DNA from: Escherichia coli | GTDB lineage: Bacteria; Pseudomonadota; Gammaproteobacteria; Enterobacterales; Enterobacteriaceae | Direction: 5' to 3' (one strand) | NCBI RefSeq assembly: GCF_016026235.1 | Contig: NZ_CP065613.1 | DNA: 64,000 nt | Part shown: positions 3,724 to 59,672 of the stretch, piece by piece | Position numbering within the stretch: the stretch's first letter is position 1 | How the letters are laid out: the number at the start of each line of letters is the position of its first letter | Made by a program: the position numbers and the translations under genes | Notes under the pieces: generated by a model | The model's input: only the letters and a program-made list of their open reading frames with translations | What the model was told of the DNA's origin: nothing | Database searches by the model: none

Positions 3724-4817
3724 AAGAAACGCTCCATCTTACTGCTGTCAGTTCGTTTATTACTGTATCTGCGCGGATTGCCGGGCTTCATGGGAGTGGA
3801 AAGCACCCGTGCACTTTCCTGGTCCACAGGCAGAAAATGTCCGTTATAAAAACGCCGGTAAATCGTTCCCAGAGAACCGTTACGTTGTTTCGTGATATTG
3901 ATTTCTGCGATGCCCCTGGCCTGCGTATCCGGGTTGTACACTTCATCCCTGTAAAGCATCAGAATGATGTCTGCATCCGCCTCTATTTCTCCGGAATTTT
4001 TCAGGTCTGAGTTCATGGGACGTTTATTGGGTCTGGACTCCACACCGCGGGAGAGCTGGCTCAGCGCAATCAACGGAAAACCACCGGATTTTGCCAGGCC
4101 TTTAAGCCCCTTTGAGATTTCACCCACGGCAAGGTCATGACGCCCCGTGGTTCGGGTTTTTATCAGCCCGAGATAATCAACCACCACCAGCGCCGTTTCC
4201 GGATGTTTAATCAGATGGTGTTTCGTTGTTGCGCATATCTCATCAATGGTCAGGTTCGCCTGGTCCACCATCCAGATATTGCGCCCGGTCATCCGCCCCA
4301 CCCCTTGTGAGAAACGCGCCCAGTCTTCATCTTCAAAGTGAGCCACAGATTTCAGGCGTGATACTGGCATCCCTCCAGCCGCAGACACCATACGTTCACC
4401 AATCTGGATGTTCGCCATCTCCATGGTGAACAGAAGCACACCATGCCCCTGCTCAGTCACCTTGTCGATGATGTCCAGCGCAAGTTCGGTTTTCCCCATC
4501 GAAGGACGAGCCGCAATAAATACCAGGTCGCCGGGCTCCATGCCGCCTGTTTTTGCGTCCAGTTCATCAATACCGGTCATCAACGTCCTGGATTTCTCCA
4601 GTCCCTGATTCCGGCATTCAACACGCTCAACCACCTCCGGAAGCACATCATCAATATGTACCGACTGAATAACGCCCTTTTCCGTCGACAATGAGGCCAT
4701 CATGTTCTGTGCATCCTTAAGAGCATCTTCAGCTGCTTCACAGGTATGCGCATTGAGGTAGCCTGAGTTTAACGGACACTCCTTCCTGAAATAGAATGGC
4801 ATCAGAAGGAGCTAATA

Positions 4818-5120
4818 ATGAGCAGAAAAAACCAACGTTACTCTAAAGAGTTCAAAGCCGAAGCTGTCAGAACGGTTCTTGAAAATCAACTTTCGATCAG
4901 TGAAGGCGCTTCCCGATTATCCCTTCCTGAAGGCACTTTAGGACAATGGGTTACCGCCGCCAGAAAAGGGCTCGGTACTCCTGGTTCCCGCACGGTGGCT
5001 GAACTGGAATCTGAAATTCTGCAACTGCGTAAGGCGTTAAATGAAGCTCGCCTTGAGCGAGATATATTAAAAAAAGCAACAGCGTATTTTGCACAGGAGT
5101 CGCTGAAAAATACGCGTTAA
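4818..5120 (+). CDS. IS600 OrfA (HTH transposase subunit)
   Basis: 100 aa, MSRKNQRYSKEFKAEAVR..., an IS3-family OrfA. It has Asn5 where the other two copies have Thr. Confidence 0.9.
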   Translation: MSRKNQRYSKEFKAEAVRTVLENQLSISEGASRLSLPEGTLGQWVTAARKGLGTPGSRTVAELESEILQLRKALNEARLERDILKKATAYFAQESLKNTR

Positions 5121-5155
5121 TCGAACAATGGCGACAACAATTTCCCATTGAAGCG

Positions 5156-5974
5156 ATGTGTCAGGTATTTGGTGTATCCAGGAGCGGTTATTACAACTGG
5201 GTACAGCATGAACCCTCAGACAGAAAACAAAGTGATGAGCGGCTAAAACTGGAGATTAAGGTGGCACATATCCGCACTCGCGAAACATATGGAACCCGGC
5301 GGCTCCAGACGGAGCTGGCAGAGAATGGCATCATCGTTGGTCGTGACCGACTGGCACGTCTTCGTAAGGAGCTAAGGCTACGCTGTAAGCAGAAACGCAA
5401 GTTCAGAGCGACTACGAACCCGAACCACAATCTGCCAGTTGCGCCAAATCTGCTGAACCAGACGTTCGCTCCTACAGCACCAAATCAGGTCTGGGTGGCG
5501 GACCTGACGTATGTTGCCACACAGGAGGGATGGTTGTACCTCGCTGGCATCAAAGATGTTTATACGTGCGAAATTGTCGGCTACGCCATGGGAGAGCGCA
5601 TGACAAAAGAGCTGACAGGTAAAGCCCTGTTTATGGCGCTCAGGAGCCAGCGCCCACCTGCCGGGCTAATCCACCACTCTGATCGAGGTTCACAGTACTG
5701 CGCATACGATTACCGGGTCATACAGGAGCAGTCTGGTCTGAAAACATCAATGTCGCGTAAAGGTAACTGTTACGACAACGCTCCGATGGAAAGCTTCTGG
5801 GGAACGCTGAAAAATGAGAGCCTGAGCCACTATCGTTTTAATAACCGGGATGAAGCCATCTCAGTAATACGGGAATACATTGAGATTTTCTACAATCGTC
5901 AGCGTCGTCACTCTCGTCTGGGGAATATCTCCCCGGCAGCCTTCAGGGAAAAATATCATCAGATGGCTGCTTAA
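5156..5974 (+). CDS. IS600 OrfB (DDE integrase domain; expressed as an OrfAB fusion by -1 frameshift)
   Basis: 272 aa carrying the rve-type motifs VWVADLTY, HSDRGSQY and DNAPMESFW. Confidence 0.9.
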   Translation: MCQVFGVSRSGYYNWVQHEPSDRKQSDERLKLEIKVAHIRTRETYGTRRLQTELAENGIIVGRDRLARLRKELRLRCKQKRKFRATTNPNHNLPVAPNLLNQTFAPTAPNQVWVADLTYVATQEGWLYLAGIKDVYTCEIVGYAMGERMTKELTGKALFMALRSQRPPAGLIHHSDRGSQYCAYDYRVIQEQSGLKTSMSRKGNCYDNAPMESFWGTLKNESLSHYRFNNRDEAISVIREYIEIFYNRQRRHSRLGNISPAAFREKYHQMAA

Positions 5975-6374
5975 AAAAAGAACAAATGGTAGTGTCCGCT
6001 ATTGCCAGTACACCTCACATCGCGTAATTTCTGTAATGCCTCGTTCAGTGTTTTTTCTGCATCGCGCAGTGCGGCATTGCGCCGCAACGCTGCAACATAG
6101 TGCTCCAGTGAAGACTTCACCCAGGTTTTACGCCCGGTATCAGTAATCACCGGGGCAAGTTCTGGCATCTCATTGCACAACAGCACAGGATCAATCACGC
6201 CGGACACACGGGCCTGTCTGCAGATGCCTGTGTAGATATCCCGGTACGGTCGTACAGAAAAAACGTCCGCCGGTAGTGTGGCCAGAATATCCATCACTTC
6301 AGGATCTGCTCCGCGCAGAAAGAACGCGCCGATGACAGCGCCTTCAAGGTCATCGTTACGCCATACTGGAGTTG

Positions 6375-14833: not shown

Positions 14834-15022
14834 ATGAACATTTATTTCAGAATAGTTATATCACTGGCAATTATCGCATGTATTTACGGATTAATCGTTC
14901 CGGCCCTCATATCAATGAAGGATACGGTAGCAGTGATTTCTGGCTTTGCTCTGGCGTGTCTGACCCCGCCCTGCATTTATGCCATTTATAAGGGTCTTTC
15001 TTTCCCCAGGAGGGAAAAATGA
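14834..15022 (+). CDS. Small two-TM membrane protein (62 aa), partner of the SPFH gene
   Basis: RBS in CAGGAGGACCATG. Two hydrophobic helices. ATGA overlap with the downstream SPFH gene. Confidence 0.55.
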   Translation: MNIYFRIVISLAIIACIYGLIVPALISMKDTVAVISGFALACLTPPCIYAIYKGLSFPRREK

Positions 15023-15820
15023 AAAAAACAATTGCGCTTGTTTTCGCGGTCAGTCTGGCTGTCTTCGGACTTGTAGGTTGCGATCGCGTTGAACCAGGTA
15101 ATGTGGGTATCAAAGTCAACAAACTGGGCGACGACAAAGGTGTCGGTGAAGTGGTCGGTGTTGGTCGCTACTGGACTGGCTGGAATACTGAAGTTTACAT
15201 TTTCCCGACCTTCAAGCAAATGAAGACCTACGATGAACCGTTCAGTTTCCAGATGAGTGACGGCACAACCATCGGCTATCACATCGGCGTGGCCTACAAA
15301 GTTGATCCATCCAAAGTTACCACGGTGTTTCAGACTTACCGCAAAGGCGTGGATGACATTACCAACACCGACCTGCGCCAGAAGATCGCCGACGCACTCA
15401 ATCGGCTGGCCAGCAAAATGACCACCGACAAATTTATTGACGGCGGCAAGTCTGAACTACTGGATGCCGCACTTAAAGACATTCAGGAAGAGATGACACC
15501 CATCGGCATTCAGGTAATGAGCCTCTCTTATGTAGGTAAACCGGAATACCCTCCAACCGTTATCGACAGCATTAACGCCAAAGTCACGGCAAACCAGAAA
15601 ACCCTGCAGCGCGAACAGGAAGTCAAGCAACGTGAAGCGGAGGCCAACATGCTACGTGCGGAAGCTGCCGGACAGGCTGATGCCATTCGAACAAAAGCCC
15701 AGGCAGAAGCCGATGCCATTCGTTTACGCGGCGAAGCTCTACGCCAGAACCCAGGCGTCATGGAGCTGGAAGCCATCAACAAGTGGAACGGTACACTGCC
15801 GCAATACATGACCAGTGGTG
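15019..15820 (+). pseudogene. SPFH/band-7 (prohibitin-like) lipoprotein, 3' end cut by IS600
   Basis: The lipobox is LVGC after the signal peptide. An SPFH core is followed by an Ala/Glu-rich coiled coil. IS600 begins at 15821, and the frame then reads through into unrelated sequence after the IS. Confidence 0.75.
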
Positions 15821-15884
15821 TGAGGTAGCCTGAGTTTAACGGACACTCCTTCCTGAAATAGAATGGCATCAGAAGGAGCTAATA

Positions 15885-16187
15885 ATGAGCAGAAAAACCC
15901 AACGTTACTCTAAAGAGTTCAAAGCCGAAGCTGTCAGAACGGTTCTTGAAAATCAACTTTCGATCAGTGAAGGCGCTTCCCGATTATCTCTTCCTGAAGG
16001 CACTTTAGGACAATGGGTTACCGCCGCCAGAAAAGGGCTCGGTACTCCTGGTTCCCGCACGGTGGCTGAACTGGAATCTGAAATTCTGCAACTGCGTAAG
16101 GCGTTAAATGAAGCTCGCCTTGAGCGAGATATATTAAAAAAAGCAACAGCGTATTTTGCACAGGAGTCGCTGAAAAATACGCGTTAA
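15885..16187 (+). CDS. IS600 OrfA
   Basis: Identical to copy 3 OrfA, starting MSRKTQ.... Confidence 0.9.
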   Translation: MSRKTQRYSKEFKAEAVRTVLENQLSISEGASRLSLPEGTLGQWVTAARKGLGTPGSRTVAELESEILQLRKALNEARLERDILKKATAYFAQESLKNTR

Positions 16188-16222
16188 TCGAACAATGGCG
16201 ACAACAATTTCCCATTGAAGCG

Positions 16223-17041
16223 ATGTGTCAGGTATTTGGTGTATCCAGGAGCGGTTATTACAACTGGGTACAGCATGAACCCTCAGACAGAAAACAAAGT
16301 GATGAGCGGCTAAAACTGGAGATTAAGGTGGCACATATCCGCACTCGCGAAACATATGGAACCCGGCGGCTCCAGACGGAGCTGGCAGAGAATGGCATCA
16401 TCGTTGGTCGTGACCGACTGGCACGTCTTCGTAAGGAGCTAAGGCTACGCTGTAAGCAGAAACGCAAGTTCAGAGCGACTACGAACCCGAACCACAATCT
16501 GCCAGTTGCGCCAAATCTGCTGAACCAGACGTTCGCTCCTACAGCACCAAATCAGGTCTGGGTGGCGGACCTGACGTATGTTGCCACACAGGAGGGATGG
16601 TTGTACCTCGCTGGCATCAAAGATGTTTATACGTGCGAAATTGTCGGCTACGCCATGGGAGAGCGCATGACAAAAGAGCTGACAGGTAAAGCCCTGTTTA
16701 TGGCGCTCAGGAGCCAGCGCCCACCTGCCGGGCTAATCCACCACTCTGATCGAGGTTCACAGTACTGCGCATACGATTACCGGGTCATACAGGAGCAGTC
16801 TGGTCTGAAAACATCAATGTCGCGTAAAGGTAACTGTTACGACAACGCTCCGATGGAAAGCTTCTGGGGAACGCTGAAAAATGAGAGCCTGAGCCACTAT
16901 CGTTTTAATAACCGGGATGAAGCCATCTCAGTAATACGGGAATACATTGAGATTTTCTACAATCGTCAGCGTCGTCACTCTCGTCTGGGGAATATCTCCC
17001 CGGCAGCCTTCAGGGAAAAATATCATCAGATGGCTGCTTAA
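16223..17041 (+). CDS. IS600 OrfB
   Basis: Identical to copy 1 OrfB. Confidence 0.9.
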   Translation: MCQVFGVSRSGYYNWVQHEPSDRKQSDERLKLEIKVAHIRTRETYGTRRLQTELAENGIIVGRDRLARLRKELRLRCKQKRKFRATTNPNHNLPVAPNLLNQTFAPTAPNQVWVADLTYVATQEGWLYLAGIKDVYTCEIVGYAMGERMTKELTGKALFMALRSQRPPAGLIHHSDRGSQYCAYDYRVIQEQSGLKTSMSRKGNCYDNAPMESFWGTLKNESLSHYRFNNRDEAISVIREYIEIFYNRQRRHSRLGNISPAAFREKYHQMAA

Positions 17042-17150
17042 AAAAAGAACAAATGGTAGTGTCCGCTATTGCCAGTACACCTCAGTGCCAATACACCATT
17101 TATCCAGATTAAATAACTTATATGCCCGGCAGGCCGCCGGGCTAAGGGAA

Positions 17151-18197: not shown

Positions 18198-19476
18198 TTT
18201 AATGCCATGAAGTATGTAAGCTCGTATCGCTCTTGGGCGTCTGGAGGTATCAATGGATAAAGTCAAATATCCAACAGGCGTCGAAAACCACGGTGGCACA
18301 TTACGCATCTGGTTTAATTTTAAAGGTAAACGTGTCAGGGAAAATCTTGGTGTCCCTGACACTGCCAAGAACAGGAAGATCGCCGGAGAGCTGCGGACAT
18401 CTGTATGTTTTGCCATTCGTACAGGAAATTTTGATTATGCTGCGCAGTTCCCTGACTCTCCTAACCTCAAGGCTTTTGGGGTAAATAAAAAAGAAATTAC
18501 GGTGAAAGAACTTGAAGAAAAATGGCTGGATCTGAAACGAATGGAAATCTCTGCAAATGCATTCAATCGCTATGAATCCATTGCAAGGATGATGGTTCCG
18601 AAGATTGGTGGCAACCGACTGGTATCAGCAGTGACCAAAGAGGAATTGCTGTATATCAGGAAAGATTTGCTGACCGGATACCAAAATCCAACAAAAGGTA
18701 AAGCTCCAGTAAAAGGACGAAGCGTTGTCACAGTAAATTATTACATGACAACAATCGCTGGAATGTTTCAGTTTGCTGCAGATCACGGTTACATAGAAGC
18801 AAATCCCTTCGAGGGAATTAAGCCTCTTAAAAGAGCCAGGGCAGAACCAGATCCGCTAACTCGTGACGAATTTATTCGCCTGATAGATGCTTGCCGGCAT
18901 CAGCAGACAAAAAACCTGTGGTCATTGGCTGTGTACACAGGAATGCGTCATGGTGAACTGGTCTCCCTGGCCTGGGAAGATATCGATCTGAAAGCAGGAA
19001 CAATTACTATCAGGCGCAATTATACGAAACTCGGTGAGTTCACTCTACCTAAAACTGAAGCAAGTACAAACAGGGTTGTGCATCTTATCCAGCCCGCTAT
19101 CAGTGTCCTGAAAAATCAGGCTGAAATGACAAGACTGGGTAAGCAGCACAACATCAAGGTTCAACTACGTGAATATGGACGTTCAGTAAATCATGAATGT
19201 ACTTTCGTATTTAACCCCCAGGTGGTTAGAAAAAGCAAACAGGTAGGTTTTATCTACAAGGTAGATTCCATTGGCGACTCATGGGAAACAGCCATTAAAC
19301 GTGCAGGCATCAGGCATCGAAAGGCATACCAGTCACGACACACTTATGCGTGCTGGTCATTATCTGCCGGAGCAAATCCAAGCTTCATTGCCAGCCAGAT
19401 GGGGCATGCAAGTGAGGTAGCCTGAGTTTAACGGACACTCCTTCCTGAAATAGAATGGCATCAGAAGGAGCTAATA

Positions 19477-19779
19477 ATGAGCAGAAAAACCCAACGTTAC
19501 TCTAAAGAGTTCAAAGCCGAAGCTGTCAGAACGGTTCTTGAAAATCAACTTTCGATCAGTGAAGGCGCTTCCCGATTATCCCTTCCTGAAGGCACTTTAG
19601 GACAATGGGTTACCGCCGCCAGAAAAGGGCTCGGTACTCCTGGCTCCCGCACGGTGGCTGAACTGGAATCTGAAATTCTGCAACTGCGTAAGGCGTTAAA
19701 TGAAGCTCGCCTTGAGCGAGATATATTAAAAAAAGCAACAGCGTATTTTGCACAGGAGTCGCTGAAAAATACGCGTTAA
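19477..19779 (+). CDS. IS600 OrfA
   Basis: 100 aa, identical in protein sequence to copy 2. Confidence 0.9.
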   Translation: MSRKTQRYSKEFKAEAVRTVLENQLSISEGASRLSLPEGTLGQWVTAARKGLGTPGSRTVAELESEILQLRKALNEARLERDILKKATAYFAQESLKNTR

Positions 19780-19814
19780 TCGAACAATGGCGACAACAAT
19801 TTCCCATTGAAGCG

Positions 19815-20633
19815 ATGTGTCAGGTATTTGGTGTATCCAGGAGCGGTTATTACAACTGGGTACAGCATGAACCCTCAGACAGAAAACAAAGTGATGAGCG
19901 GCTAAAACTGGAGATTAAGGTGGCACATATCCGCACTCGCGAAACATATGGAACCCGGCGGCTCCAGACGGAGCTGGCAGAGAATGGCATCATCGTTGGT
20001 CGTGACCGACTGGCACGTCTTCGTAAGGAGCTAAGGCTACGCTGTAAGCAGAAACGCAAGTTCAGAGCGACTACGAACCCGAACCACAATCTGCCAGTTG
20101 CGCCAAATCTGCTGAACCAGACGTTCGCTCCTACAGCACCAAATCAGGTCTGGGTGGCGGACCTGACGTATGTTGCCACACAGGAGGGATGGTTGTACCT
20201 CGCTGGCATCAAAGATGTTTATACGTGCGAAATTGTCGGCTACGCCATGGGAGAGCGCATGACAAAAGAGCTGACAGGTAAAGCCCTGTTTATGGCGCTC
20301 AGGAGCCAGCGCCCACCTGCCGGGCTAATCCACCACTCTGATCGAGGTTCACAGTACTGCGCATACGATTACCGGGTCATACAGGAGCAGTTTGGTCTGA
20401 AAACATCAATGTCGCGTAAAGGTAACTGTTACGACAACGCTCCGATGGAAAGCTTCTGGGGAACGCTGAAAAATGAGAGCCTGAGCCACTATCGTTTTAA
20501 TAACCGGGATGAAGCCATCTCAGTAATACGGGAATACATTGAGATTTTCTACAATCGTCAGCGTCGTCACTCTCGTCTGGGGAATATCTCCCCGGCAGCC
20601 TTCAGGGAAAAATATCATCAGATGGCTGCTTAA
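19815..20633 (+). CDS. IS600 OrfB
   Basis: 272 aa. It has one substitution relative to copies 1 and 2 (EQFGLK versus EQSGLK). Confidence 0.9.
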   Translation: MCQVFGVSRSGYYNWVQHEPSDRKQSDERLKLEIKVAHIRTRETYGTRRLQTELAENGIIVGRDRLARLRKELRLRCKQKRKFRATTNPNHNLPVAPNLLNQTFAPTAPNQVWVADLTYVATQEGWLYLAGIKDVYTCEIVGYAMGERMTKELTGKALFMALRSQRPPAGLIHHSDRGSQYCAYDYRVIQEQFGLKTSMSRKGNCYDNAPMESFWGTLKNESLSHYRFNNRDEAISVIREYIEIFYNRQRRHSRLGNISPAAFREKYHQMAA

Positions 20634-20844
20634 AAAAAGAACAAATGGTAGTGTCCGCTATTGCCAGTACACCTCAAAGTGCCCAGATGGTGTTCAATGT
20701 ATACGGAGCATGGATGACTGACAGCAATGCAGAACAGATCGCAATGCTGAATCAGAAGCTGGCAGATTATGTCCCAATGATGTCCCATGGTCACCAAAGT
20801 GACACAAGAGGCTTATTAAAATCAGTGAGTTAGCTTTTAATACC

Positions 20845-21637: not shown

Positions 21638-23782
<2,145 letters not shown>

Positions 23783-31949: not shown

Positions 31950-32342
31950 TCAGCGATAATTCACAATCACTTCATTACGTTGTACCTTTAGCGGTGGAAT
32001 TAACCGCCCACCGCCTGGCACTTCCCAGATAAATCGCAACGGTTCTGCTGCCGCTATACCGGAAAAGGCCACGGTGGTTCCGCTCTGCCCCTCTAATTCG
32101 ACACAACGAGATTGCGAACACAAGCGAACCCGCAGTCCTGAAGGTGTCGGGCCGATAAGCTGATAACGCCACGCTACCAGCGTCATCAATCCTGAAGCAG
32201 GTTGTCGCGTAGAAAGAGGCGCAGACGACATCGACTCACCGCGATGATTTAGCGTAATTCCTACACTACTTGCCTGCCACATCCCCTCCCCGGCGGCTTG
32301 CACCAGCAGCGGAAACAATAATATTGCTAATAAGGTTCTCAT
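31950..32342 (-). CDS. flhE: Flagellar protein FlhE
   Basis: 130 aa, recognised, last gene of the flhBAE operon. Confidence 0.95.
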   Translation of the reverse strand: MRTLLAILLFPLLVQAAGEGMWQASSVGITLNHRGESMSSAPLSTRQPASGLMTLVAWRYQLIGPTPSGLRVRLCSQSRCVELEGQSGTTVAFSGIAAAEPLRFIWEVPGGGRLIPPLKVQRNEVIVNYR

Positions 32343-34420
32343 TATTTGCCGCCAATTGTCGCCGTCATGCGGATATGTCGGTTATCAGACAGTTCCAGAT
32401 TCGACAGGACCACTAACTGCGGCAAGCTGCGGCGCAGGAAGCGAGACAATAATGGTCGCAGCGCGTGGTTCACCAACAATACTGGCGGCGCACCCAGCAT
32501 CTCCTGACGGGATAGCGCTTCCTGAGTTTGCGCCAGTAAACGATCCGCCAGCCCTGGCTCCAGTCCTCCCCCGCCCTGCAGCGCCTGTAGTAACAAACGT
32601 TCCAGCGGTGTATCGAGGCCAATAACATGGACTTCATCTTTGCCAGGAAACCACTGCTGGGTAATCGCCCGTCCCAACGCCACGCGCACGACGGCGGTTA
32701 ATTCATGTGGATCGCTTTGGATGGGCGCATGTTCCGCCAGCGTTTCGAGAATGGTGCGCATATCGCGAATCGGTACTTTTTCATCGAGGAGATTTTGCAG
32801 CACTTTATGCAGTGTGGTGAGCGTGACGACGCCAGGAACGAGATCTTCCGTCAGCTTTGGCATCTCCTGGGCGACGCGATCCAACAGCTGTTGCGCCTCC
32901 TGACGACCAAACAGCTCTGCGGCATGCTGGCTAATGAGGTGGTTAAGATGCGTTGCTACCACCGTGCTGGCCTCAACCACTGTGTACCCCTGAATCTGCG
33001 CCTGTTCTTTTAGCGCACTTTCAATCCAGATAGCATTCAGGCCAAATGCCGGATCGACGGTCGCCTCACCAGGTAACGTCCCGGCAGCGGTACCAGGGTT
33101 AATTGCCAGCCAGCGCCCCGGATAAGCATCACCACTGCCAATCTCTACGCCTTTCATCAAAATACGATAACGTGCCGGTTGCAGATCCATATTGTCGCGA
33201 ATGTGCACCACCGGCGGCAAGAAGCCCATTTCCTGAGCAAATTTCTTACGAATACTACGAATACGGCCCAGCAACTCGCCATCTTGTTGGAAATCAACCA
33301 TCGGGATCAGTCGATAACCCACTTCCATTCCCAGAGAATCTTCCAGTTGTACATCGTTCCACGTCGCTTCTACAACGGTATTATTCTCTGCCATTTTTAC
33401 CGGTTTGGGTTCGGCAGGCGCTTTTTGTTCGCGTCCGCGTATCCACCAGGCCAGCCCGAGCAATCCGGCAGTGAACAGCAAAAATACCAGGTTCGGCATT
33501 CCAGGCACCAGGCCGAGTAAACCGAGCACGGCGGCGCTTAACAACATAACGCTTGGGTTACTGAAAAGCTGATTCACCATCTGCTCGCCAACATCCTGAT
33601 CGGTGCTGACACGCGTAACGATGACCCCCGCGGCGGTAGAAATCACCAGCGCCGGAATTTGTGCCACCAGACCGTCGCCAATGGTCAATAGCGTATAACT
33701 TTCCGCCGCGTGTCCCATGCTCATGCCATGTTGCAGCACGCCGACCAGCAACCCGCCGACAACGTTAATGACCATGATGAGGATCCCGGCGATGGCATCG
33801 CCGCGAACAAACTTACTTGCCCCGTCCATTGAGCCGTAAAAATCGGCTTCCTGAGTGACTTCGGAGCGGCGTTTTTTCGCCTCATCTTCACCAATCAATC
33901 CGGCGTTAAGGTCGGCGTCAATCGCCATCTGCTTACCCGGCATACCATCGAGAACAAAGCGCGCACCCACTTCTGCGATACGCCCGGCACCTTTGGTAAT
34001 GACCATAAAGTTGATGATCACGAGAATGACAAACACCACGATACCGATAGCGAAATTGCCACCAACGAGGAAGTGACCGAACGCTTCGACCACCTTCCCT
34101 GCCGCCGCTGCGCCGGTATGCCCTTCCATCAAAATGATACGGGTTGAAGCCACGTTAAGTGCCAGACGCAACAGCGTGGTAAACAACAGAATGGTCGGAA
34201 ACGCAGCAAACTCGAGCGTGCGCTGGGTAAACATCGCCACCAGCAACACCATGATCGACAAGGCAATATTGAAGGTAAACAACAGGTCGAGTATGAATGC
34301 GGGCAGTGGCAGCACCATCATCGACAAGATCAACAGGATCAAAATCGGTCCGGCAAGGATCTGCCATTGTGTCGATTTCAGGTTTGCGGGCAGGCGCAGC
34401 ATCGCGGCCAGATTACTCAT
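32342..34420 (-). CDS. flhA: Flagellar export apparatus protein FlhA (intact, 692 aa)
   Basis: Starts MSNLAAMLRLPANLKSTQWQ. Its start codon overlaps the ancestral flhB stop codon. Confidence 0.95.
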   Translation of the reverse strand: MSNLAAMLRLPANLKSTQWQILAGPILILLILSMMVLPLPAFILDLLFTFNIALSIMVLLVAMFTQRTLEFAAFPTILLFTTLLRLALNVASTRIILMEGHTGAAAAGKVVEAFGHFLVGGNFAIGIVVFVILVIINFMVITKGAGRIAEVGARFVLDGMPGKQMAIDADLNAGLIGEDEAKKRRSEVTQEADFYGSMDGASKFVRGDAIAGILIMVINVVGGLLVGVLQHGMSMGHAAESYTLLTIGDGLVAQIPALVISTAAGVIVTRVSTDQDVGEQMVNQLFSNPSVMLLSAAVLGLLGLVPGMPNLVFLLFTAGLLGLAWWIRGREQKAPAEPKPVKMAENNTVVEATWNDVQLEDSLGMEVGYRLIPMVDFQQDGELLGRIRSIRKKFAQEMGFLPPVVHIRDNMDLQPARYRILMKGVEIGSGDAYPGRWLAINPGTAAGTLPGEATVDPAFGLNAIWIESALKEQAQIQGYTVVEASTVVATHLNHLISQHAAELFGRQEAQQLLDRVAQEMPKLTEDLVPGVVTLTTLHKVLQNLLDEKVPIRDMRTILETLAEHAPIQSDPHELTAVVRVALGRAITQQWFPGKDEVHVIGLDTPLERLLLQALQGGGGLEPGLADRLLAQTQEALSRQEMLGAPPVLLVNHALRPLLSRFLRRSLPQLVVLSNLELSDNRHIRMTATIGGK

Positions 34421-35561
34421 GGGTCGGTTTCTCGTTAATAAAATCCAGGGCTTCCGGCACCGGAAGATGAGTAGGTTGTACAGGGCGCTGTCCACCAGCC
34501 AGACGCCAGCGTTTCAGTTGCCAGACCTAGGCCAGCACTTCCGCCACCGCGGCGTACAGTTGACCCGGGATTTGTTGACCAATCTCCGCATGTCGATACA
34601 GCGCTCGCGCCAGCGGCGGCGCTTCAAGCGTCGGGACGTTATTTTCAGCGCCAATTTCACGAATGCGCAGCGCGACCAGCCCTGCACCTTTAGCGACCAC
34701 TTTCGGTGCGCTCATTTTGTTTTCGTCATACTGCAACGCTACCGAATAGTGGGTCGGGTTATTGACAATGACATCCGCTTTCGGCACATCGGCCATCATC
34801 CGACGCCGTGCAGCCGCTCGCTGCATCTGACGGATCCGCCCTTTAACATGGGGGTCGCCTTCGCTTTGTTTGAACTCATCACGAATATCCTGCCGCGACA
34901 TACGCAGCTTTTTCAGGTGGCTGAAGATTTGGAAAAAGACGTCAAATCCCACCATTGGAATGACACCAAGCACCACCAGCAGTGCGCATAGCCCTACCAG
35001 ATCCATCGCATTACCCATGGCGGTAATCGGAGACTCGGCCATTAAGCGCATCATCTGCGGCCAGTGATGCCAGAGAAAAAACCCCGTCACGCTGCCAACC
35101 AGGATGGTTTTCAAAATTGCTTTAAGTAACTCCGCGCCAGTCTGTGCCGAGAACATCCGTTTAATGCCCGGTAGCGGGTTGAGTTTGGAAAACTTCGGCT
35201 GCAAGGATTTGCCGCTAAATACCAGCCCTCCCAGCATGACCGGAGAAATGAGCGCCACCAGCACCACGCAGCTAATCAGCGGTAGCAGCGCCAGCATGGC
35301 TTCTCTGATCAGCAGAATAAACTGCCCGAGGATCAGATTCGGGTCATTGATAATACTGTGATCAAAATGCAGCCCAGCGGAGAGCATGCCCGACAATCGA
35401 CGGGCCAGGGACACACCGCCAAACCAGATAACACACACGCCCACCAGCAAAATCAGCAGTGAAGTCAGTTCACGGGAACGTGGGATTTGCCCCTCTTCCC
35501 GCGCTTTTTCTAGTCGGTGAGGTGTGGGGGCTTCTGTTTTGTCGTCGCTCTCGTCAGACAC
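34413..35561 (-). pseudogene. flhB: flhB with premature amber codon (344 of about 382 codons translated)
   Basis: The ORF ends ...AAVAEVLA-TAG at 34527-34529. The same frame continues VWQLKRWRLAGGQRPVQPTHLPVPEALDFINEKPTHE to the ancestral TAA at 34413-34415. Confidence 0.9.
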
Positions 35562-35796
35562 GTCGCCAATCCTGGAAAGAGTATTAAGCGTAAATGATGC
35601 CAGAGCGCAAAGCGTTCAATGGTTTGAGTAAGGGGCAAAACCGGCGGGATTTAGGACGTTTATGCAAAAATAGGTTCAGTTGCAGAACGTTTTGCGAACC
35701 ATTTTCCAGTTCTGATATTTAGCCATTTAGCCTATAGAATCGCCCACCGCCTCTCTGTTAGTTTGCTAATAATTAAATTATTACAAAGGTGATCAA

Positions 35797-37305
35797 ATGG
35801 AATGGCAACAATTGCTTAACTGCAACCGTCGGAAAGATAATCTAAAAAAAACCAACATAGCATTTTTACATCCCCTTGCTAGCGGAAGACAAGAGATCGA
35901 ACGGGATTACGACCGATTACTTTTTGCTGCGCCAACTCGTCGCCTTGCGGATAAAACACAAGTTTTCCCGTTAGATCAAAATGACAGCATACGGACGAGA
36001 CTGACTCATTCTCACGAAGTAGCAAACTTTGCTCGCGGAATAGGAATGAGACTCGCTTTCGAGATGAAGGAGCACATCTTTGGCGAAATACCCACGGGGA
36101 TTGTCGTTGAACGCGACGTTCCTGCTCTGTTAGCAGCGATCGGACTGGCACACGATCTCGGTAATCCACCATTTGGGCATCAAGGTGAAGCAGCGATGCG
36201 CGCATGGTTTAATAAAAATCTTCCAGGTCTTCTTGATAAAGAAGTAAACAGCGAAATATATAACGACTTTCTGCAATTTGATGGAAACTCACAAACCCTG
36301 CGCCTGGTTACCAAATTACAAATTATTAACGATAACTTTGGTCTGAATTTGACCTATGCCACGCTGGCTGCACTGATCAAATATCCCCGAGCTTCATATT
36401 CATCGGACAAACATTGGAAAAAGCACGGTTTTTTCTATTCTGAGCATGAGGTTGTCATGGATGTCTGGCAGCAAACGGGCCTTGGCGTACCAGGTAATGA
36501 TGCCGGTTGCCGCCACCCATTTACCTGGATAATGGAAGCTTGCGACGATATTGCCTACTCTGTGCTTGACGCAGAAGATACCATCAAGAAAGGATTTGCC
36601 TCATACCAGGATTTGCGTGATTTTTTGATGTCACAATCCGGGGCGAACGATGTAATTGAAAATGTTATTAAAGCTGTAGAGGCCAAAAATGACGCCTGGA
36701 AAGAGCAAAGAAATGCACTTTCACCGGCAGAAATTAATGAACTCAGTATGCAAATGTTCAGAGTGTATGCCACCAGTGCATTGATTAATGCCGTAGTAGA
36801 AGCCTTTCGCGAACAATTACCCACGCTGATGCAGCGTGACTGCCCGTTCAAAGATTTAATCTCGCAAAGCAAAGGTCACGCCCTCTGCACTGCCCTGAAA
36901 ATGTTCGACCGAACACGAGGCTACCTTCATCGTTCAGTCTTGCAACTGGAACTTAGGGGGTCTAATTACATTACTAACTTGATGGATATGCTCTGGATTG
37001 GCATCCATGGACACAAAACAAAGAAAGAACGAGACGGAGAACGCGAGTCCGCGTCTGCAGATAACCTTTTTGTTTCTCGTGAAGAATACCTGTCGGATAC
37101 TCCCTTTGGTCGCTATGCTTACGGGACAATATCTGAAAATTATCGCCGTGTGTTTGAAGATCCCGCCAATACACTCCCTGTTCTTTATAAAGAAGCGCAG
37201 TTGCTTACCGACGCAATCTCAGGCATGACGGATAGTTATTTAATGCGCCTTCACGATGAGCTAAAATCACTGTATGAATGTGGTCTCAAACACCCAACAG
37301 CTTGA
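35797..37305 (+). CDS. Dgt-family dNTP (dGTP) triphosphohydrolase paralogue, HD domain, 502 aa
   Basis: Motifs are collinear with E. coli Dgt: RRLADKTQVFPL, RTRLTHSHEV, AHDLGNPPFGH, FDGNSQTLRL, PFTWIMEACDDIAY and ISGMTDSY. The RBS is AAGGTGATCAAATG. The region is AT-rich relative to its flanks. Confidence 0.85.
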   Translation: MEWQQLLNCNRRKDNLKKTNIAFLHPLASGRQEIERDYDRLLFAAPTRRLADKTQVFPLDQNDSIRTRLTHSHEVANFARGIGMRLAFEMKEHIFGEIPTGIVVERDVPALLAAIGLAHDLGNPPFGHQGEAAMRAWFNKNLPGLLDKEVNSEIYNDFLQFDGNSQTLRLVTKLQIINDNFGLNLTYATLAALIKYPRASYSSDKHWKKHGFFYSEHEVVMDVWQQTGLGVPGNDAGCRHPFTWIMEACDDIAYSVLDAEDTIKKGFASYQDLRDFLMSQSGANDVIENVIKAVEAKNDAWKEQRNALSPAEINELSMQMFRVYATSALINAVVEAFREQLPTLMQRDCPFKDLISQSKGHALCTALKMFDRTRGYLHRSVLQLELRGSNYITNLMDMLWIGIHGHKTKKERDGERESASADNLFVSREEYLSDTPFGRYAYGTISENYRRVFEDPANTLPVLYKEAQLLTDAISGMTDSYLMRLHDELKSLYECGLKHPTA

Positions 37306-38026
37306 ACAGCGTATCGCCGATTTTTTTACGCTTAGTGATGAGCATAAGAAAGCCAGAGTATTACTTGATACTCTGGCCTGTTCCTGTCCGGCCTGGATTT
37401 TTGGCGGGATGGTGCGTGACTTAGGCTTGTTTGGCGTCGAAGGATTCTCTTCAGACCTTGATATCGTCATCGGTCGCTCGCGTGAGGAACTCTTCCAGAC
37501 ATTGGCTGAACTGCCCGTCAAACAACTGCGTTTTAATAAGTTTGGTGGGATCCGTTTTCGTTATCACGACTTCGAATTTGATATCTGGAACCTCAATGAG
37601 ACATGGGCATTTCGGGAAAAACTTATATTTTGTGAGGATGAATCAAGTCTGTTAAACACTACGCTAATGAGTTGGGATGCCGTGCTCTATGATCTACGTA
37701 GTGAAAAAATTATCAGTAAAGATAATTATTTGACCGATTTAAATCGCAGACATCTTGAACTTGTTCTTCATACTAACCCCAATCCAAGCGGTTCGGTAAC
37801 GAAGATTTTACGCACTATTTTTACTAAGCAGGTAAAGAGTTTAGGGCCGGAACTCTGTCATTTCTTGCACCATGAACTGACGAAAAAACGTTATGAAGTA
37901 TGGCATCACTACGATGTACTGCACTACCAATCATCGTCATTTTCTCGTTCACAATTTAATGCATTGATAAATTTACTGGCGCAACAATCACGCTTCGCTG
38001 ATCTAAAATTATCAAACTACAAATAA
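37274..38026 (+). CDS. Pol-beta superfamily nucleotidyltransferase (CCA-adding/poly(A)-polymerase head-like), 250 aa
   Basis: FGGMVRDLGLFGVEGFSSDLDIVI carries the GG-x-VRD...DxD motif, with a further acidic DFEFDIW strand. It overlaps the dGTPase gene by 32 nt on the same strand. There is no strong RBS. Confidence 0.65.
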   Translation: MNVVSNTQQLEQRIADFFTLSDEHKKARVLLDTLACSCPAWIFGGMVRDLGLFGVEGFSSDLDIVIGRSREELFQTLAELPVKQLRFNKFGGIRFRYHDFEFDIWNLNETWAFREKLIFCEDESSLLNTTLMSWDAVLYDLRSEKIISKDNYLTDLNRRHLELVLHTNPNPSGSVTKILRTIFTKQVKSLGPELCHFLHHELTKKRYEVWHHYDVLHYQSSSFSRSQFNALINLLAQQSRFADLKLSNYK

Positions 38027-38113: not shown

Positions 38114-38758
38114 TCAAAATCCAAGACTATCCAACAAATCGTCCACCTGATCCTGACTGGCTACCACACCGGCTTTGCTGGTATCGACCTGAGGTCCATT
38201 AAGCAAACTCTGGTTTTCACGTTTTGGACGCGACTCCTGTTCCGGGATGTTTTCCAACAGCACCATCAGCAACTGGCGTTCGATCTCCTGAATGACATCC
38301 ATCATCCGCTTAATGACCTGCCCGGTGAGATCCTGAAAATCCTGCGCCATCATGATTTCCAGCAGTTGCGCGTTAGTAAAGCTGGTATGCGCGGGTACAT
38401 CTGCCAGAAATTGTCGTGTATCTGTTACCAGTTCACGGGCGTCGGCAAGGTCAATCGGATCGGCAAACCAGTCATCCCAACGTTGGGTTAACGCTTTTGC
38501 TGATTTCTCCATTTGATCCTGATGCGGTTGTGACGCCTCAACACTGTTCAGCGCCCGCTCCGCAGCCTGGGCGGTCATCTGCACAACATAGTACAAACGA
38601 TCGCGCGCATCGGGGATGGCTTCCGCCGCTTCGGCAATGGCCTGATCCAGCCCCAGTTCCCGCAAACTGTCGCGCAGCATACGCGTCAGGCTGCCGATGC
38701 GCGCAATGATATCGCCAGCTGAATGCTCGTCAGCAGGTTTGATTGATGGTTGCATCAT
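38114..38758 (-). CDS. cheZ: CheY-P phosphatase CheZ
   Basis: [24 protein letters not shown]..., 214 aa. Confidence 0.95.
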
Positions 38759-42750: not shown

Positions 42751-44412
42751 TCAAAATGTTTCCCAGTTTGGATCTTGTTCAGCAATTCGCAGTCGTGGCT
42801 GTGCCGGTGGTTGCTCACTGGCAGGACGGGATGGTGTTTGCGGTTTATTGGTGAGTGGGCTGGCTGCCAGACGGAACGCGGAAACCGCTTGCGTTAAACG
42901 ACTCGCCTGTTCTTCCAGCGCAGCGGCGGCGGCAGCTGATTCCTGCACCAGCGATGCGTTCTGTTGCGTGACGCGATCCATTTCCGAAACCGCCAATGCG
43001 ACTTGATCGATGCCACGGCTCTGTTCATCCGATGCCGATGCAATCTCGCCCATAATGTCAGTCACGCGAGTGACAGCATTGACGATATTGTTCATTGTTT
43101 CCCCGGCGCTTTCGACCAGCACCGAACCGGTATCAACGCGTGCGACGGAGTCTTCAATGAGGGCTTTGATCTCTTTTGCCGCTTGGGCGCTGCGACTGGC
43201 AAGATTACGCACTTCACCCGCCACCACGGCAAAACCACGGCCCTGTTCACCCGCACGCGCGGCTTCAACCGCGGCATTCAGCGCGAGGATATTAGTCTGG
43301 AAGGCAATACCGTCGATAACGCTGATAATGTCGGCAATTTTCTTCGAACTATCGGCGATCTCATGCATCGTTTTCACTACGCCATCCACCACTTTGCCGC
43401 CGTGCTGGGCGGTGTCGGAGGCACTTTGCGCCAGTTGCGAGGCCTGGCGGGCGTTATCGGCGTTTTGCTTCACTGTCGCGGTGAGCTGCTCCATGCTGGC
43501 GGCAGTTTCTTCCAGCGCGGATGCCTGCTGTTCAGTACGGGAGGAAAGATCGGTGTTGCCCGCCGCAATTTCACGGGTACCGGCATAGATGGCATCTGAA
43601 CCTTCGCGGACATGAGTGACGGTGTCAGTCAAAGAGCGTTGCATATGTGAAACGCTCTGCGCCAGGTCGCCCATTTCACTGCGCCCGTCAATGGTCAGGG
43701 TATTCGCCAGGTTACCACCGGCGATTTCGCGAATGTGAGCAATAATTTTTGCCAGCGGAGTAAGCAACATACGGCGAATGCCGTACCACGCCACCAGCAG
43801 AATCAATACCACCACCAGCGCGATAACCGCCAGTTGCCACTGGGCAAATCGGTAATCATCTGCGTTGTCAGTGACGATATCGCGATACAGTTTTTCACTG
43901 CTGAGGGCGTACTGAGCAAACGCTTCGCCCATTGCATTTTGCATTCCCTGGGTTGGCTGAGCGAAATAAGCTCCAGTATTGCCATAATCTAGATAATCAA
44001 TCAGTTCAGTTAACGCTGTGTAATAGTTTTTATATTTTTCATCAATATTACGACTGGTAGCGACCATTTCAGGTAACGGTGCCATGCTTTTGAATTTTTT
44101 ATAATGCGTCGCTGCCTGCGCCAATGTTTTCCTGGCGCTATCGAGCAATTCAACTTTGGCGTTACTTTGTTGATTGGAGGAATCCATCATCATCCGCACC
44201 GCTGAACGACTCAGGTTAATGCGCGTTTGCAGCATTAAATCCCAGGTTGACGTCAGCTCGCCCTGCTGTTCCCGTAATTGATTGGAAACCACAAAGCTCT
44301 TCTGGCTATGGTGAAGGGAAGAAAAAAACAGACTGCCGGAAATAAGCTGTAACAGTGCGAATACCCCCAGCACCATTACCAACAGCGTGACTACGCGGAT
44401 ACGGTTAATCAT
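42751..44412 (-). CDS. tar: Methyl-accepting chemotaxis protein II (aspartate) Tar
   Basis: [22 protein letters not shown]..., 553 aa, ending in NWETF. Confidence 0.95.
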
Positions 44413-45080: not shown

Positions 45081-47972
<2,892 letters not shown>

Positions 47973-48235: not shown

Positions 48236-49528
48236 CTGAGGAATCCCCAGAAAACAAGACAGGCATAGTGAGATGTGATCTAATTGATTGTGCTAACAAT
48301 TTCAAGGAGATCACCACTATGCCTGCACGTTCATTATGCCAAAATTTCCTTAACAACATACTGGCCCCTTTGCATCTTTACCGTCAAAAATCACTGATTG
48401 ACGCAACTAATGCTGTAATAAATGGCGCTTCCCTCACACTTACCAGTATCGGGCGTCATTTAACCGGTACGGCATCAGTTAAAAACAAAATAAAGCGGGT
48501 GGATCGACTGTTGGGGAATCGACATTTGCAAAATGAGGTTTCCACCATTTTTCAGCGAATTACCCAAAAGATTACGCGGGGAATGTCTCGTGTTGTGATA
48601 CTCATTGACTGGAGTGCTTATCATGCCTCTCGTTTTCAGCTTTTGCGGGCAAGCCTGGCATGTGACGGGCGTTCTTTACCGTTGATGAGTTGTGTCGTTC
48701 CATCATCACAGACAGCGAATGCAGATGTACATGAGCGTTTTCTGGAATCGCTTGCTGAGTGCTTTTCCCCCGGGACTGATGTCATTGTTATTACAGATGC
48801 CGGTTTTCAGGGGCGATGGTTCCAACAGCTCCGCTCCCGTGGCTGGACCTATATTTGCCGGGTACTGGGCAATCATTATTACAATGTTGGTAATGGCTGG
48901 GAAAAGGTGTCGGACTCAGGCACAAAAGCATCAACGACAGCAATTTATTTAGGTGAAGGCCTGCTGGGTCGAGATAAAAATGCACAACATGAAGGGCATT
49001 TTTATCTTTATAAAAGTAAGCCTAAAGGTCGTTGATTTAAACGCTCGAAGGAAAGAGCAACCAGACCATCGGTGACGGCTAAAGCTCGTACTGCCGGGAA
49101 ATCACCATGGTTTATTTTCACAAACAGTACTGAGTTCTCGCCAAAACAGGTAATGAAATTATACAGCCGTAGAATGCAAATTGAGCAAAATTTCAGGGAT
49201 GAAAAAATCCTCGCTGGGGATTTGGACTACGGTTTGGTGCCAGTCATTCATCCGGGCGGGTCACGGTATTGAGTCTGATCGCAACATTAGCCAGTATCAT
49301 TATGTGGTTAAGCGGTTTCAGCCTGGAAAACAAAGGGATACATCATAAATATCAGGCAAATACAGTGAAGCACAGGCGAGTCATCTCGTTATTAAAACTG
49401 GCGGAGAATGTGATTCGACATTCTCCACTCATACTAAACACACTGTCACTTGACGCAGGGCTGAAAGTTCTACAGCAACGGTATACCAATATGATAATGG
49501 TTTACTAAATTTTCTGGGGATCCCTCAG
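48236..49528 (+). mobile_element. IS10-like element (IS4 family), about 1293 bp, with defective transposase
   Basis: Terminal inverted repeats are CTGAGGAATCCCCAGAAAA and TTTTCTGGGGATCCCTCAG (1 mismatch), resembling IS10 ends. The flanking direct repeat GGAAAGTCC(C) at 48226-48235 and 49529-49538 is consistent with a 9-bp duplication, with a 1-nt boundary ambiguity. Confidence 0.9.
48268..49508 (+). pseudogene. IS10-type DDE transposase with an in-frame TGA and a frameshift
   Basis: Collinear with the IS10 transposase (IKRVDRLLGNRHL, ILIDWS, VITDAGF, YSRRMQIEQNFRDEK). An in-frame TGA lies at 49033-49035. The frame changes near the A6 run at 49202-49207, after which PRWGFGLRFG... continues in the +2 frame. 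Confidence 0.85.
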
Positions 49529-57382: not shown

Positions 57383-58372
57383 TTACTTACCGCCTAAACC
57401 TTTTTTCTCCAGTTCTTCTTTAAAGTTGTCACGCGTGATCAGCACCACGTCGGTAACTTCGGTAAATTTTGGCGGTTCAACGTCTTTTGCTACCCAGTTG
57501 TAAAGCATTTCGCTGGATTTATAGCCATGTACGTCCGGGCTTGGCAGCAGGGAACCGTAGAAGCCGGTTGCCTGTGCTTTAGACAGTTCGCTCACCGCAT
57601 CCACACCGTTAATGCCAATGCCGATGATATCGGCAGCTTTAAAGCCCTGACCTTCCGTCGCGCGTACGCCGCCCAGCACGGTGCTGTCGTTCATACCGAC
57701 GATCAGCCAATGTTTAACTTCCGGATGTTGAACCAGCATTGAGTTGGCAGCGTCAAATGCCCCCGGGATGTCGTTAGATTTGGTAGGTACCTGATAAATT
57801 TGTTTTTCCGGGAATCCTGCAGCTTTCAGTGCGTCCATAGAACCCGTTGTACGGCGGCGGGCGGTATCCAGTTCGTTGGCGGTAATCGCCATCACCGCGC
57901 TTTCTTTGACATCCCAGCCACGTTTCTGCATCTCTTTATACAGTTCCTGGCCCTGACGTTCGCCAATTTTAGTCGCCGCCATCATCACCAGAGGAACGGT
58001 ATCCATTGGCTTACCTTTGGCGTTAACAAACTGGTCATCCACGGCAATGACTTTCATATCGTAGCCACGCGCTTTCGCGACGATGGCAGAGCCGAGTTTG
58101 GGGTCCGGAGTACAAATAACGAAACCTTTTGCGCCACTGGCAGCCAGGCTGTCGATCGCGTTCAATGTTTTTTCGCCATCCGGCACGGCAATCTTAATAA
58201 CCTCAAACCCTAAATCCTTCCCGGCTTTATCGGCAAACTTCCATTCGGTCTGGAACCACGGCTCTTCCGGTTGCTTCACCAGAAAACCGAGCTTCAGGTT
58301 CTCCGCCATAGCGGATTGTGACATAACGGCTGCCAGACCAATGGCTGCCAGGGCTTTAGTAAATTTGTGCAT
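57383..58372 (-). CDS. araF: Arabinose-binding periplasmic protein
   Basis: MHKFTKALAAIGLAAVMSQSAMA signal peptide, 329 aa. Confidence 0.95.
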   Translation of the reverse strand: MHKFTKALAAIGLAAVMSQSAMAENLKLGFLVKQPEEPWFQTEWKFADKAGKDLGFEVIKIAVPDGEKTLNAIDSLAASGAKGFVICTPDPKLGSAIVAKARGYDMKVIAVDDQFVNAKGKPMDTVPLVMMAATKIGERQGQELYKEMQKRGWDVKESAVMAITANELDTARRRTTGSMDALKAAGFPEKQIYQVPTKSNDIPGAFDAANSMLVQHPEVKHWLIVGMNDSTVLGGVRATEGQGFKAADIIGIGINGVDAVSELSKAQATGFYGSLLPSPDVHGYKSSEMLYNWVAKDVEPPKFTEVTDVVLITRDNFKEELEKKGLGGK

Positions 58373-59168
58373 GGTTCTCTCCAGCTTTAGTGTCGTTTTG
58401 TGTAGGGCAAAAACGAATGACATTCGTTAAATTAATCGGAAAACAAAGCATTACCTTTTAACTAAAAGATAAGTGACCGTGTTGACATAGTTTTAGCGAG
58501 AAATTAATTCTCCATAGGAGAGCAATATCACATCGCAGAATTACAGTGAGAACGTGCATAAATTTAGCGGGAAAAGACATAAGGGAAAGCCAATTTGTCA
58601 GACAAATTGTCGAATGCACAGCAGATTAATCCATAAGATTAGCCTGGAAATCCTTGTTGTCTTTGGTACCCATGCGGGATGTCTTCTTTTTAACCAGTCA
58701 ATAGGCCGCATTACCTGGCGTTGAGTTTTTGAAATGGTGTAATAACCGCAACTCAAAGATGTGGAAAATGCACGTCATTCATTTCGTCATTAATTATCAC
58801 TGTGCTCATTAATTAACATAACACGTATAATGAGAGCCATCTCGCAAAAATGAAAAAACGTTTTATAAAATCATCACTTCATCATGAATTCAAATTCATT
58901 GATTAATATCAACAAGATACAAAAAGCACTATCATTAAAATTCATTGCAGTTACATTGATTTCATCAATGAAATGTAAAAATATATAAACTTGATGATTT
59001 AAGCATTTTCTTATACCCGTTCAGACGTTATTCTTATTTCAGATCATCGTCAGAATTGACTCCACGATCACATTTCGGACCGGCAGAAAGGAATTATTCT
59101 GCAAACAGTAATTATGGTGTTTTGATTTATCTTGCACCTCTCCACTTCTGGATATAAGGATATTAGGT

Positions 59169-59672
59169 ATGGCAACCGCTGGAATGCTTCTCAAACTCAA
59201 CTCTCAAATGAACCGCGAGTTTTACGCATCCAATCTCTACCTTCACCTGAGTAACTGGTGTTCTGAACAGAGTCTGAACGGCACCGCCACTTTCCTTCGC
59301 GCCCAGGCACAGAGTAATGTGACCCAAATGATGCGCATGTTTAACTTTATGAAGAGTGTCGGCGCTACCCCCATCGTTAAAGCCATTGATGTTCCCAGTG
59401 AAAAACTGAACTCTCTGGAAGAACTGTTCCAAAAAACGATGGAAGAATACGAGCAACGTTCTAATACGTTGGCACAGTTAGCCGATGAAGCGAAAGAACT
59501 GAATGATGATTCAACCGTCAATTTCCTGCGCGATCTGGAAAAAGAACAGCAGCATGATGGTCTGTTGCTGCAAACCATTCTTGATGAAGTGCGCAGTGCG
59601 AAACTTGCGGGTATGTGCCCTGTGCAGACCGACCAACATGTTCTGAATGTCGTGTCACACCAGCTGCATTGA
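59169..59672 (+). CDS. ftnB: Ferritin-like protein FtnB
   Basis: 167 aa, recognised (yecI). Confidence 0.9.

Follow-up and report, generated by a model that had tools for sequence, protein, structure and literature searches.

Amber mutations at methylated cytosines have a long history: Coulondre, Miller, Farabaugh and Gilbert reportedly located the amber hotspots of lacI in 1978 at the 5-methylcytosine of CCAGG/CCTGG, and Lieb is said to have found in 1991 that very-short-patch repair by Vsr holds such hotspots in check. Here we describe a naturally occurring counterpart in the flagellar gene flhB, found in a stretch of 64,000 nucleotides of Escherichia coli DNA (contig NZ_CP065613.1), the whole of which we refer to as the window. 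In this gene the codon for Trp345 has become an amber codon, very likely by spontaneous deamination of 5-methylcytosine at a Dcm-type site. The mechanism is the classical one and already known, and the locus offers a clean natural textbook example of it, not a new mechanism. As in lacI, a G:C>A:T transition at the inner cytosine gives TAG, here in both orientations, TGG>TAG in flhB and CAG>TAG in cheA, a second gene of the same motility block. However, the lacI hotspots come from a laboratory forward-mutation spectrum, whereas the flhB amber is a natural mutation, fixed in a decaying gene, at a cytosine whose methylation we infer. At the methylated base of CCWGG, G:C>A:T changes are known to be unusually frequent (PMC13250602, PMC3527292), and among closely related natural isolates the mutation rate of C5-methylated cytosines is reported to be raised about 8-fold where Dcm is the enzyme and 8- to 50-fold over the range of methyltransferases (Cherry 2018, in the parts relayed by PMC9520237 and bioRxiv 10.1101/2021.01.19.427316). 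As far as those parts of Cherry 2018 go, the populations studied there resemble the lineage described here in their excess of C>T changes at the targets of Dcm and of restriction-modification C5-methyltransferases among very recent single-nucleotide polymorphisms (SNPs). Set against the 8- to 50-fold range relayed from that study, the elevation in our lineage is about 53-fold at CCWGG, at the top of the range, and about 41-fold at CCSGG, both figures coming from just one lineage, sampled over 40 kb.

The flhB reading frame lies on the minus strand at 34413..35561 (coordinates transferred from the flhB annotation of NZ_CP065615.1) and consists of 382 codons and a stop, broken at codon 345. Translation would begin at a GTG at 35561 and end after 344 residues with ...AAVAEVLA, the coding strand around the break reading GAA GTG CTG GCC TAG GTC TGG CAA CTG AAA CGC TGG. 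The amber codon itself occupies 34527..34529 on the minus strand, the mutated base being 34528, as polarised by an outgroup. Beyond it the frame stays open as VWQLKRW... up to the native TAA at 34415-34413, so that the original prediction of an in-frame TAG within CCTAGG, followed in the same frame by the normal FlhB C-terminus, agrees with both the sequence and the open reading frame. By comparison with full-length homologues, this remnant (34413..34526, minus strand), now untranslated, comprises 37 codons (VWQLKRW...PTHE) and the native TAA. The palindrome CCTAGG, at 34526..34531, derives from an ancestral CCTGGG, in which the Dcm pentamer CCTGG occupied 34531-34527 on the coding strand. The 64-kb window holds CCTAGG only twice, at the flhB amber and at an amber in cheA (45308..45313, minus strand), where Gln579 CAG has become TAG (codon 45311-45309) through a change at 45311, again the inner cytosine of a Dcm site. 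The cheA amber lies 10.8 kb from that of flhB, in the same context and at the distance of about 11 kb given beforehand, and is lineage-specific when compared with the closest relative.

This closest relative, E. coli FDAARGOS_943 (NZ_CP065615.1), is collinear with the window from 20677 to 64000 at an identity above 99.9%, and a more distant genome, NZ_OZ282453.1, serves as outgroup. FDAARGOS_943 is rich in the insertion sequences (IS) IS600, IS1 and ISEc60 and has a plasmid with phoC and a fragment of an IpaH-like E3 ligase, features that give it a Shigella-like or enteroinvasive character. Over 1401 nt of the window (34300-35700), position 34528 is the sole difference from the relative, which has a coding-strand G there, in the codons GCC TGG GTC and in a CCTGG site within GCTGGCCTGGGTCTGGC. 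The outgroup likewise has G at 34528, and a search of 5,386 complete E. coli genomes for an 81-mer centred on the flhB TAG found no identical sequence and, at best, matches with one mismatch. Since relative, outgroup and 81-mer search agree, the ancestral coding-strand pentamer was CCTGG, and the alignment to intact alleles thus upholds the ancestral TGG that had been proposed. Relative to both genomes the flhB change is a G:C>A:T transition, coding-strand G>A, and on the plus strand 34528 corresponds to the second, inner C of CCWGG (ancestral AGACC[C]AGGCC), a member of the computed set of Dcm targets. Thus, the G>A seen in flhB is the change that an inner 5-methylcytosine on the other strand would leave when deaminated, as had also been proposed.

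The amber codon is a real allele and no sequencing error, as it is found in at least three independent assemblies of the lineage. The exact 344-residue FlhB, deposited as STM86623.1, is encoded on 20 contigs, among them those of GCA_001907535.1, SRR3578993 and SRR30892832, and these contigs are either 100% identical to the window or differ from it by one SNP. In addition, a 20.8-kb part of the window is identical to contig UGFA01000005.1 of the NCTC-type assembly GCA_900449985.1, with an IS600 in a prophage integrase gene included. Since the same allele recurs across independent assemblies and read sets and in the match to GCA_900449985.1, the flhB TAG is fixed in a sequenced clone. The idea that it is an artefact, or an allele brought in by recombination, is effectively refuted for flhB and retains hardly any probability: apart from the recurrence just described, none of the 5,386 E. 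coli genomes that might have acted as donors has the flhB TAG, and its flanks are identical to those of the closest relative. More generally, import is unlikely on the branch leading to the window, because the substitutions on it are scattered and nearly all of one direction. Import is conceivable for the companion amber in cheA, and nothing points to it for flhB. Indeed, the cheA amber 81-mer is found exactly in five unrelated complete E. coli genomes, for example NZ_CP027591.1 (strain 2014C-3011), in which cheA is annotated with an 'internal stop' on a background that is 1.2% divergent and that lacks a 4-bp deletion present in cheA of the window. The shared cheA amber reflects either recombination or a mutation that struck this Dcm site more than once. 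Beyond E. coli, a scan of species-representative genomes with a degenerate pattern around the amber returned only a chance match in a metagenome-assembled genome of a planctomycete, and no other species with the amber; the genome of the window is itself not among the GTDB representatives. The 345-residue 'Shigella' FlhB proteins of the same 90% cluster were considered as related lesions and set aside, as they are truncated at the N-terminus, keep Trp345 and are unrelated.

Whether the Dcm context of the flhB amber is more than chance can be judged from the other recent mutations of the lineage. Over 40,561 aligned sites (~40.6 kb), the outgroup was used to polarise the differences between window and relative. 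The window branch carries 12 substitutions, 11 of them G:C>A:T, while five of the ten on the sister branch are of this type. Four of the 11 fall on Dcm inner cytosines, a class that makes up 218 of 20,326 G:C pairs (1.07%), which corresponds to a rate ratio of 53 (95% range 12-207, p=4e-6). These four are yecN T71T, flhB W345*, tar Q410Q and cheA Q579*. The yecN change, at 21850, is a synonymous C>T on the minus strand (Thr71), and the tar change, at 43183, is likewise a synonymous minus-strand C>T (Gln410, CAG>CAA). Since two of the four changes at Dcm sites are synonymous, the excess is one of mutation bias and not of selection for gene loss alone. It amounts to about 50-fold across the lineage, synonymous changes included, and a lineage-wide comparison of this kind, which had been suggested as a check, is strongly positive on these 40.6 kb. 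The two genes tell the same story when taken by themselves. Among the 34 sites in flhB at which a G:C>A:T change creates a nonsense codon, a single one, in codon 345, is a target of Dcm methylation; cheA has 45 such sites, three of which are Dcm targets, and its amber sits at one of the three. The joint chance that both nonsense mutations fall on Dcm-target sites is 0.002. The scarcity of CCTAGG, which the 64 kb hold at these two ambers alone, likewise speaks against coincidence. With the ancestral CCTGG, the G>A change and the lineage-wide excess, the assignment of the flhB amber to the classical 5-methylcytosine hotspot is supported.

The course of events would then be as follows. In the ancestral CCTGG/CCAGG, the non-coding-strand 5-methylcytosine, presumably methylated by the chromosomal Dcm and perhaps also by a plasmid-borne SsoII-type CCNGG methyltransferase, would have been deaminated to thymine. 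The resulting T:G mismatch would have escaped very-short-patch repair, a failure that we likewise infer, and replication would have converted TGG (Trp345) into TAG. The change took place on the short branch leading to an IS-rich, Shigella-like or enteroinvasive-type E. coli lineage, and the amber became fixed as the motility regulon decayed, with an IS insertion in motA and a frameshift and an amber in cheA.

Several observations weigh against such a simple account. The dcm and vsr genes lie outside the 64-kb window, and intact copies were seen in the closest relative only, where dcm is full length (472 aa, with PF00145 and the Dcm N-terminal domain), as is vsr (156 aa, PF03852); the relative's Dcm and Vsr alleles each occur on at least 1000 contigs, too common to be traced to one genome. 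Dcm methylation in the strain itself, a condition named beforehand, has indirect support from the mutation spectrum. The sister branch has none of its five G:C>A:T changes at CCWGG, even if its difference from the window branch is not significant (Fisher p=0.10). Among 373 older transitions that separate the window (20852-64000) from NZ_OZ282453.1, one is at a Dcm inner cytosine and two are at CCSGG, so that at a divergence of ~1.3% the hotspot is not visible. It is possible that surviving CCWGG sites are enriched where C>T changes are selected against, in which case the hotspot would show only in young, unfiltered mutations. The excess at CCWGG is also larger than the ~8-fold reported for Dcm sites (p=0.008), and more than ordinary Dcm methylation may be at work. 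Finally, G:C>A:T is the commonest change on the branch anyway, the probability that a single event coincides with such a site is about 2-12% according to how large the elevation truly is, and a single historical mutation can never be attributed to one cause with certainty. The amber could therefore be an ordinary G:C>A:T transition, caused by a replication error or by deamination of an unmethylated cytosine, that fell into CCWGG by accident, and one coincidence in a context covering 1% of sites is possible where 11 of 12 substitutions are of this type. However, this would leave to accident four independent changes on 1.07% of the G:C pairs, as well as the placement of both nonsense mutations on rare Dcm-target sites, which makes it quite improbable. 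A lineage-specific defect in vsr that rendered Dcm sites unusually mutable would account for a rate ratio of ~53 (12-207) exceeding the ~8-fold reported for Dcm (PMC9520237), and for a sister branch without CCWGG changes. Yet vsr is intact in the closest relative, the window and sister branches do not differ significantly, and a vsr defect would leave the changes at CCSGG sites, described below, unexplained; it appears unlikely, if a little less so than an ordinary transition. Alkylation-type mutagenesis was considered as a source of the bias towards G:C>A:T and rejected, the mutated G's not being found preferentially after purines. CpG sites account for five of the seven non-Dcm G:C>A:T changes on the window branch against 29% expected, a marginal and post hoc observation in which two are CCSGG sites.

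Deamination of a 5-methylcytosine in CCTGG remains the preferred reading, and the alternative that has to be taken most seriously keeps this chemistry and changes or adds to the enzyme. In the clade, changes also occur at the inner cytosine of CCSGG, which belongs to CCNGG and is not a Dcm target. On the window branch these are a G>A at the inner-C position of a CCCGG upstream of flhD (51291) and a C>A at the inner C of a CCGGG on the minus strand (57259), giving araG Gly19Cys. Further CCSGG inner-C changes are found in the relative (47722, CCGGG, G>A) and specifically in GCA_001907535.1 (39537, CCCGG, G>A), and an unpolarised SNP at 15008 has the same inner-C context in CCCGG. Counting transitions only, three of the 13 non-Dcm G:C>A:T changes in the clade (51291, 47722 and 39537) are at CCSGG inner cytosines, which represent 0.72% of G:C pairs (p=1e-4), and at CCNGG overall the count is 7 of 17 (p=1e-8). 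These CCSGG changes led to a search for a CCNGG-specific C5-methyltransferase. No C5-methyltransferase was found in the prophage region of the window, and the enzyme in the relative's prophage is of the N6/N4 type. A plasmid of FDAARGOS_943, NZ_CP065617.1 (5,815 bp, ColE1-type, mobilisable), encodes a 379-residue C5-methyltransferase divergent from a type II endonuclease. The endonuclease is identical at 304 of 305 positions to R.Ecl18kI (PDB 2fqz), a CCNGG enzyme (PMC2577355), and the exact plasmid proteins are named M.SsoII (MTS2_SHISO) and R.SsoII in the sources. M.SsoII methylates CCNGG sites at their inner C (PMC6100179), and CCWGG sites are among its targets. The plasmid thus belongs with the SsoII, Ecl18kI and Kpn2kI systems, CCNGG systems on small ColE1-type plasmids (PMC6100179, PMC2577355) to which the relative's methyltransferase and endonuclease are essentially identical; here, the system is encoded outside the window and seen in the sister strain, and its mutagenic role is that of a candidate.

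It is possible, if somewhat less probable than the contrary, that M.SsoII was the other or an extra enzyme and that the flhB amber is partly a by-product of this mobile restriction-modification system, which could have acted by adding methylation, by promoting deamination through the enzyme itself or by keeping Vsr away from T:G mismatches. In favour of this are the CCSGG transitions, the C>A at 57259 and the SNP at 15008, the occurrence of so rare a system (about 34 full-length copies of the SsoII module among 72,556 plasmids) on a plasmid of the closest relative, and a CCWGG excess above the ~8-fold typical of Dcm. However, presence of the endonuclease and methyltransferase in the clade is shown for the closest relative only, and no sample of the window lineage is among the 10 matches listed in a look-up of the SsoII endonuclease that covered 24 of 475 index blocks; the CCSGG inner-C changes within that lineage (51291, 39537, 57259 and 15008) speak indirectly for its presence there. 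Moreover, Dcm alone methylates CCWGG nearly fully, which leaves little room for added methylation, the sister strain that carries the plasmid has no CCWGG changes, the counts are small, and the CCNGG hypothesis was framed after seeing the data. 'Dcm site' is thus right as a description of the sequence context, while Dcm may not be the sole enzyme responsible. We propose, more tentatively still, that the SsoII plasmid and Dcm together make the inner C of every CCNGG a hotspot of ~40-50-fold, the source of ~40% of recent G:C>A:T changes (7/17), and thereby speed the decay of flhB and cheA. If this doubtful scenario were true, a mobile restriction-modification system would be linked to how fast reductive evolution proceeds in an enteroinvasive lineage, and a selfish defence element would measurably accelerate nonsense-driven gene decay during adaptation to a host. 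A mobile CCNGG methyltransferase as an added source of hotspot load and gene decay is a point worth following. Whichever enzyme is involved, a large part of the most recent point mutations in the lineage, two gene-killing ones among them, sits on about 1% of its G:C pairs. Methylation-target sites give rise to recurrent, homoplasic SNPs, as with the same cheA amber in unrelated strains, which can mislead phylogenies, and they can also bias the order in which genes decay.

Shigella and enteroinvasive E. coli have lost motility convergently, as flagellar operons were hit by deletions, point mutations and IS insertions. The lineages compared here resemble them in that sisters carry differing lesions, with no notable difference from the known pattern, and add a further example. 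The motility block of the window reads, on the minus strand, flhD-flhC-motA-motB-cheA-cheW-tar-tap-cheR-cheB-cheY-cheZ, followed by a two-gene insert on the opposite strand and flhB-flhA-flhE. From its sequence, motility is off independently of flhB. An IS4-like ISEc60 lies within motA (48237..49528, placed by alignment and by annotation of the matching element) and is absent from this site in the closest relative. In addition, cheA carries the 4-bp deletion mentioned above (TACC, plus strand as aligned, between 46241 and 46242; 46238..46245, gene on the minus strand), a frameshift upstream of the amber after which translation soon meets a stop, and cheA thus has two independent inactivating lesions. 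FDAARGOS_943 instead has an IS1 in fliR and a frameshift in cheZ; the latter is the 1-bp difference at 38329, the window's cheZ being intact (214 aa). The two-gene insert between flhB and cheZ (35797-38026, plus strand) is also present in FDAARGOS_943 and NZ_OZ282453.1. One of its genes encodes a dGTPase-like HD protein of 502 residues, which matches the PADLOC dGTPase model at 1e-70 and scores under the cut-off of the NCBIfam anti-phage dGTPase, and the other is an overlapping open reading frame of 250 residues with no match in Pfam, NCBIfam or PADLOC.

What the truncation does to FlhB can be gauged by analogy. The original prediction that about 38 C-terminal residues are lost and the NPTH autocleavage site is retained is accurate: 38 of 382 residues are gone, and NPTH stands at residues 268-271. 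The called product is still assigned to its family, that of the SctU-type flagellar export switch proteins (TIGR00328, 457.5 bits against a cut-off of 349; Bac_export_2, PF01312). It covers profile positions 1-339 of 348 of TIGR00328, the last nine being gone together with the proline-rich tail, and scores under the cut-off of the equivalog NF009117 (545 against 712). A full-length FlhB of 382 residues runs on through the last part of the cytoplasmic core and into the C-terminal tail, whereas this one stops after residue 344. Mutations in flhB are reportedly able to act as suppressors of fliK (Williams et al., in 1996). Salmonella FlhB proteins ending at 350, 355 or 360 (1-350, 1-355, 1-360) still function and alter the control of hook length, as far as Inoue et al. 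2019 is relayed in PMC7771051. Such proteins, like that of the window, lack the tail and keep NPTH, and they still export and change the substrate-specificity switch. However, FlhB(1-344) is six residues shorter than the shortest Salmonella allele tested, and the strain owes its lack of motility to other causes. By this analogy partial function is plausible, and the truncated protein would be partly functional at best. The neighbouring flhA (32342..34420, minus strand) is intact, a FHIPEP gene of 692 residues being called in contigs of the lineage. Its ATG, which in the native operon overlaps the stop codon of flhB (ATGAGTAA), is now found 106 nt beyond the premature stop, an arrangement in which translational coupling of flhA to flhB is probably lost.

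Outside the motility block, a 3-bp indel in cmoB (GCA, plus strand as aligned; 22918) separates the window from the relative, and IS1 insertions in araF and ftnB (region 58125-59438) are found in FDAARGOS_943 only and are absent from the window. These insertions, being specific to FDAARGOS_943, indicate that the two sister lineages gain IS lesions independently. Positions 1-20676 of the window are a degraded lambdoid prophage, with a Q-like antiterminator, RusA, a DnaB-like helicase, replication proteins, a cI-like repressor and a Band_7 protein, and with a tRNA-Met at 2055-2130. The prophage is broken by three copies of IS600 (4753-6017, 15817-17085 and 19408-20677), the third of which truncates its integrase gene (18253-19425).

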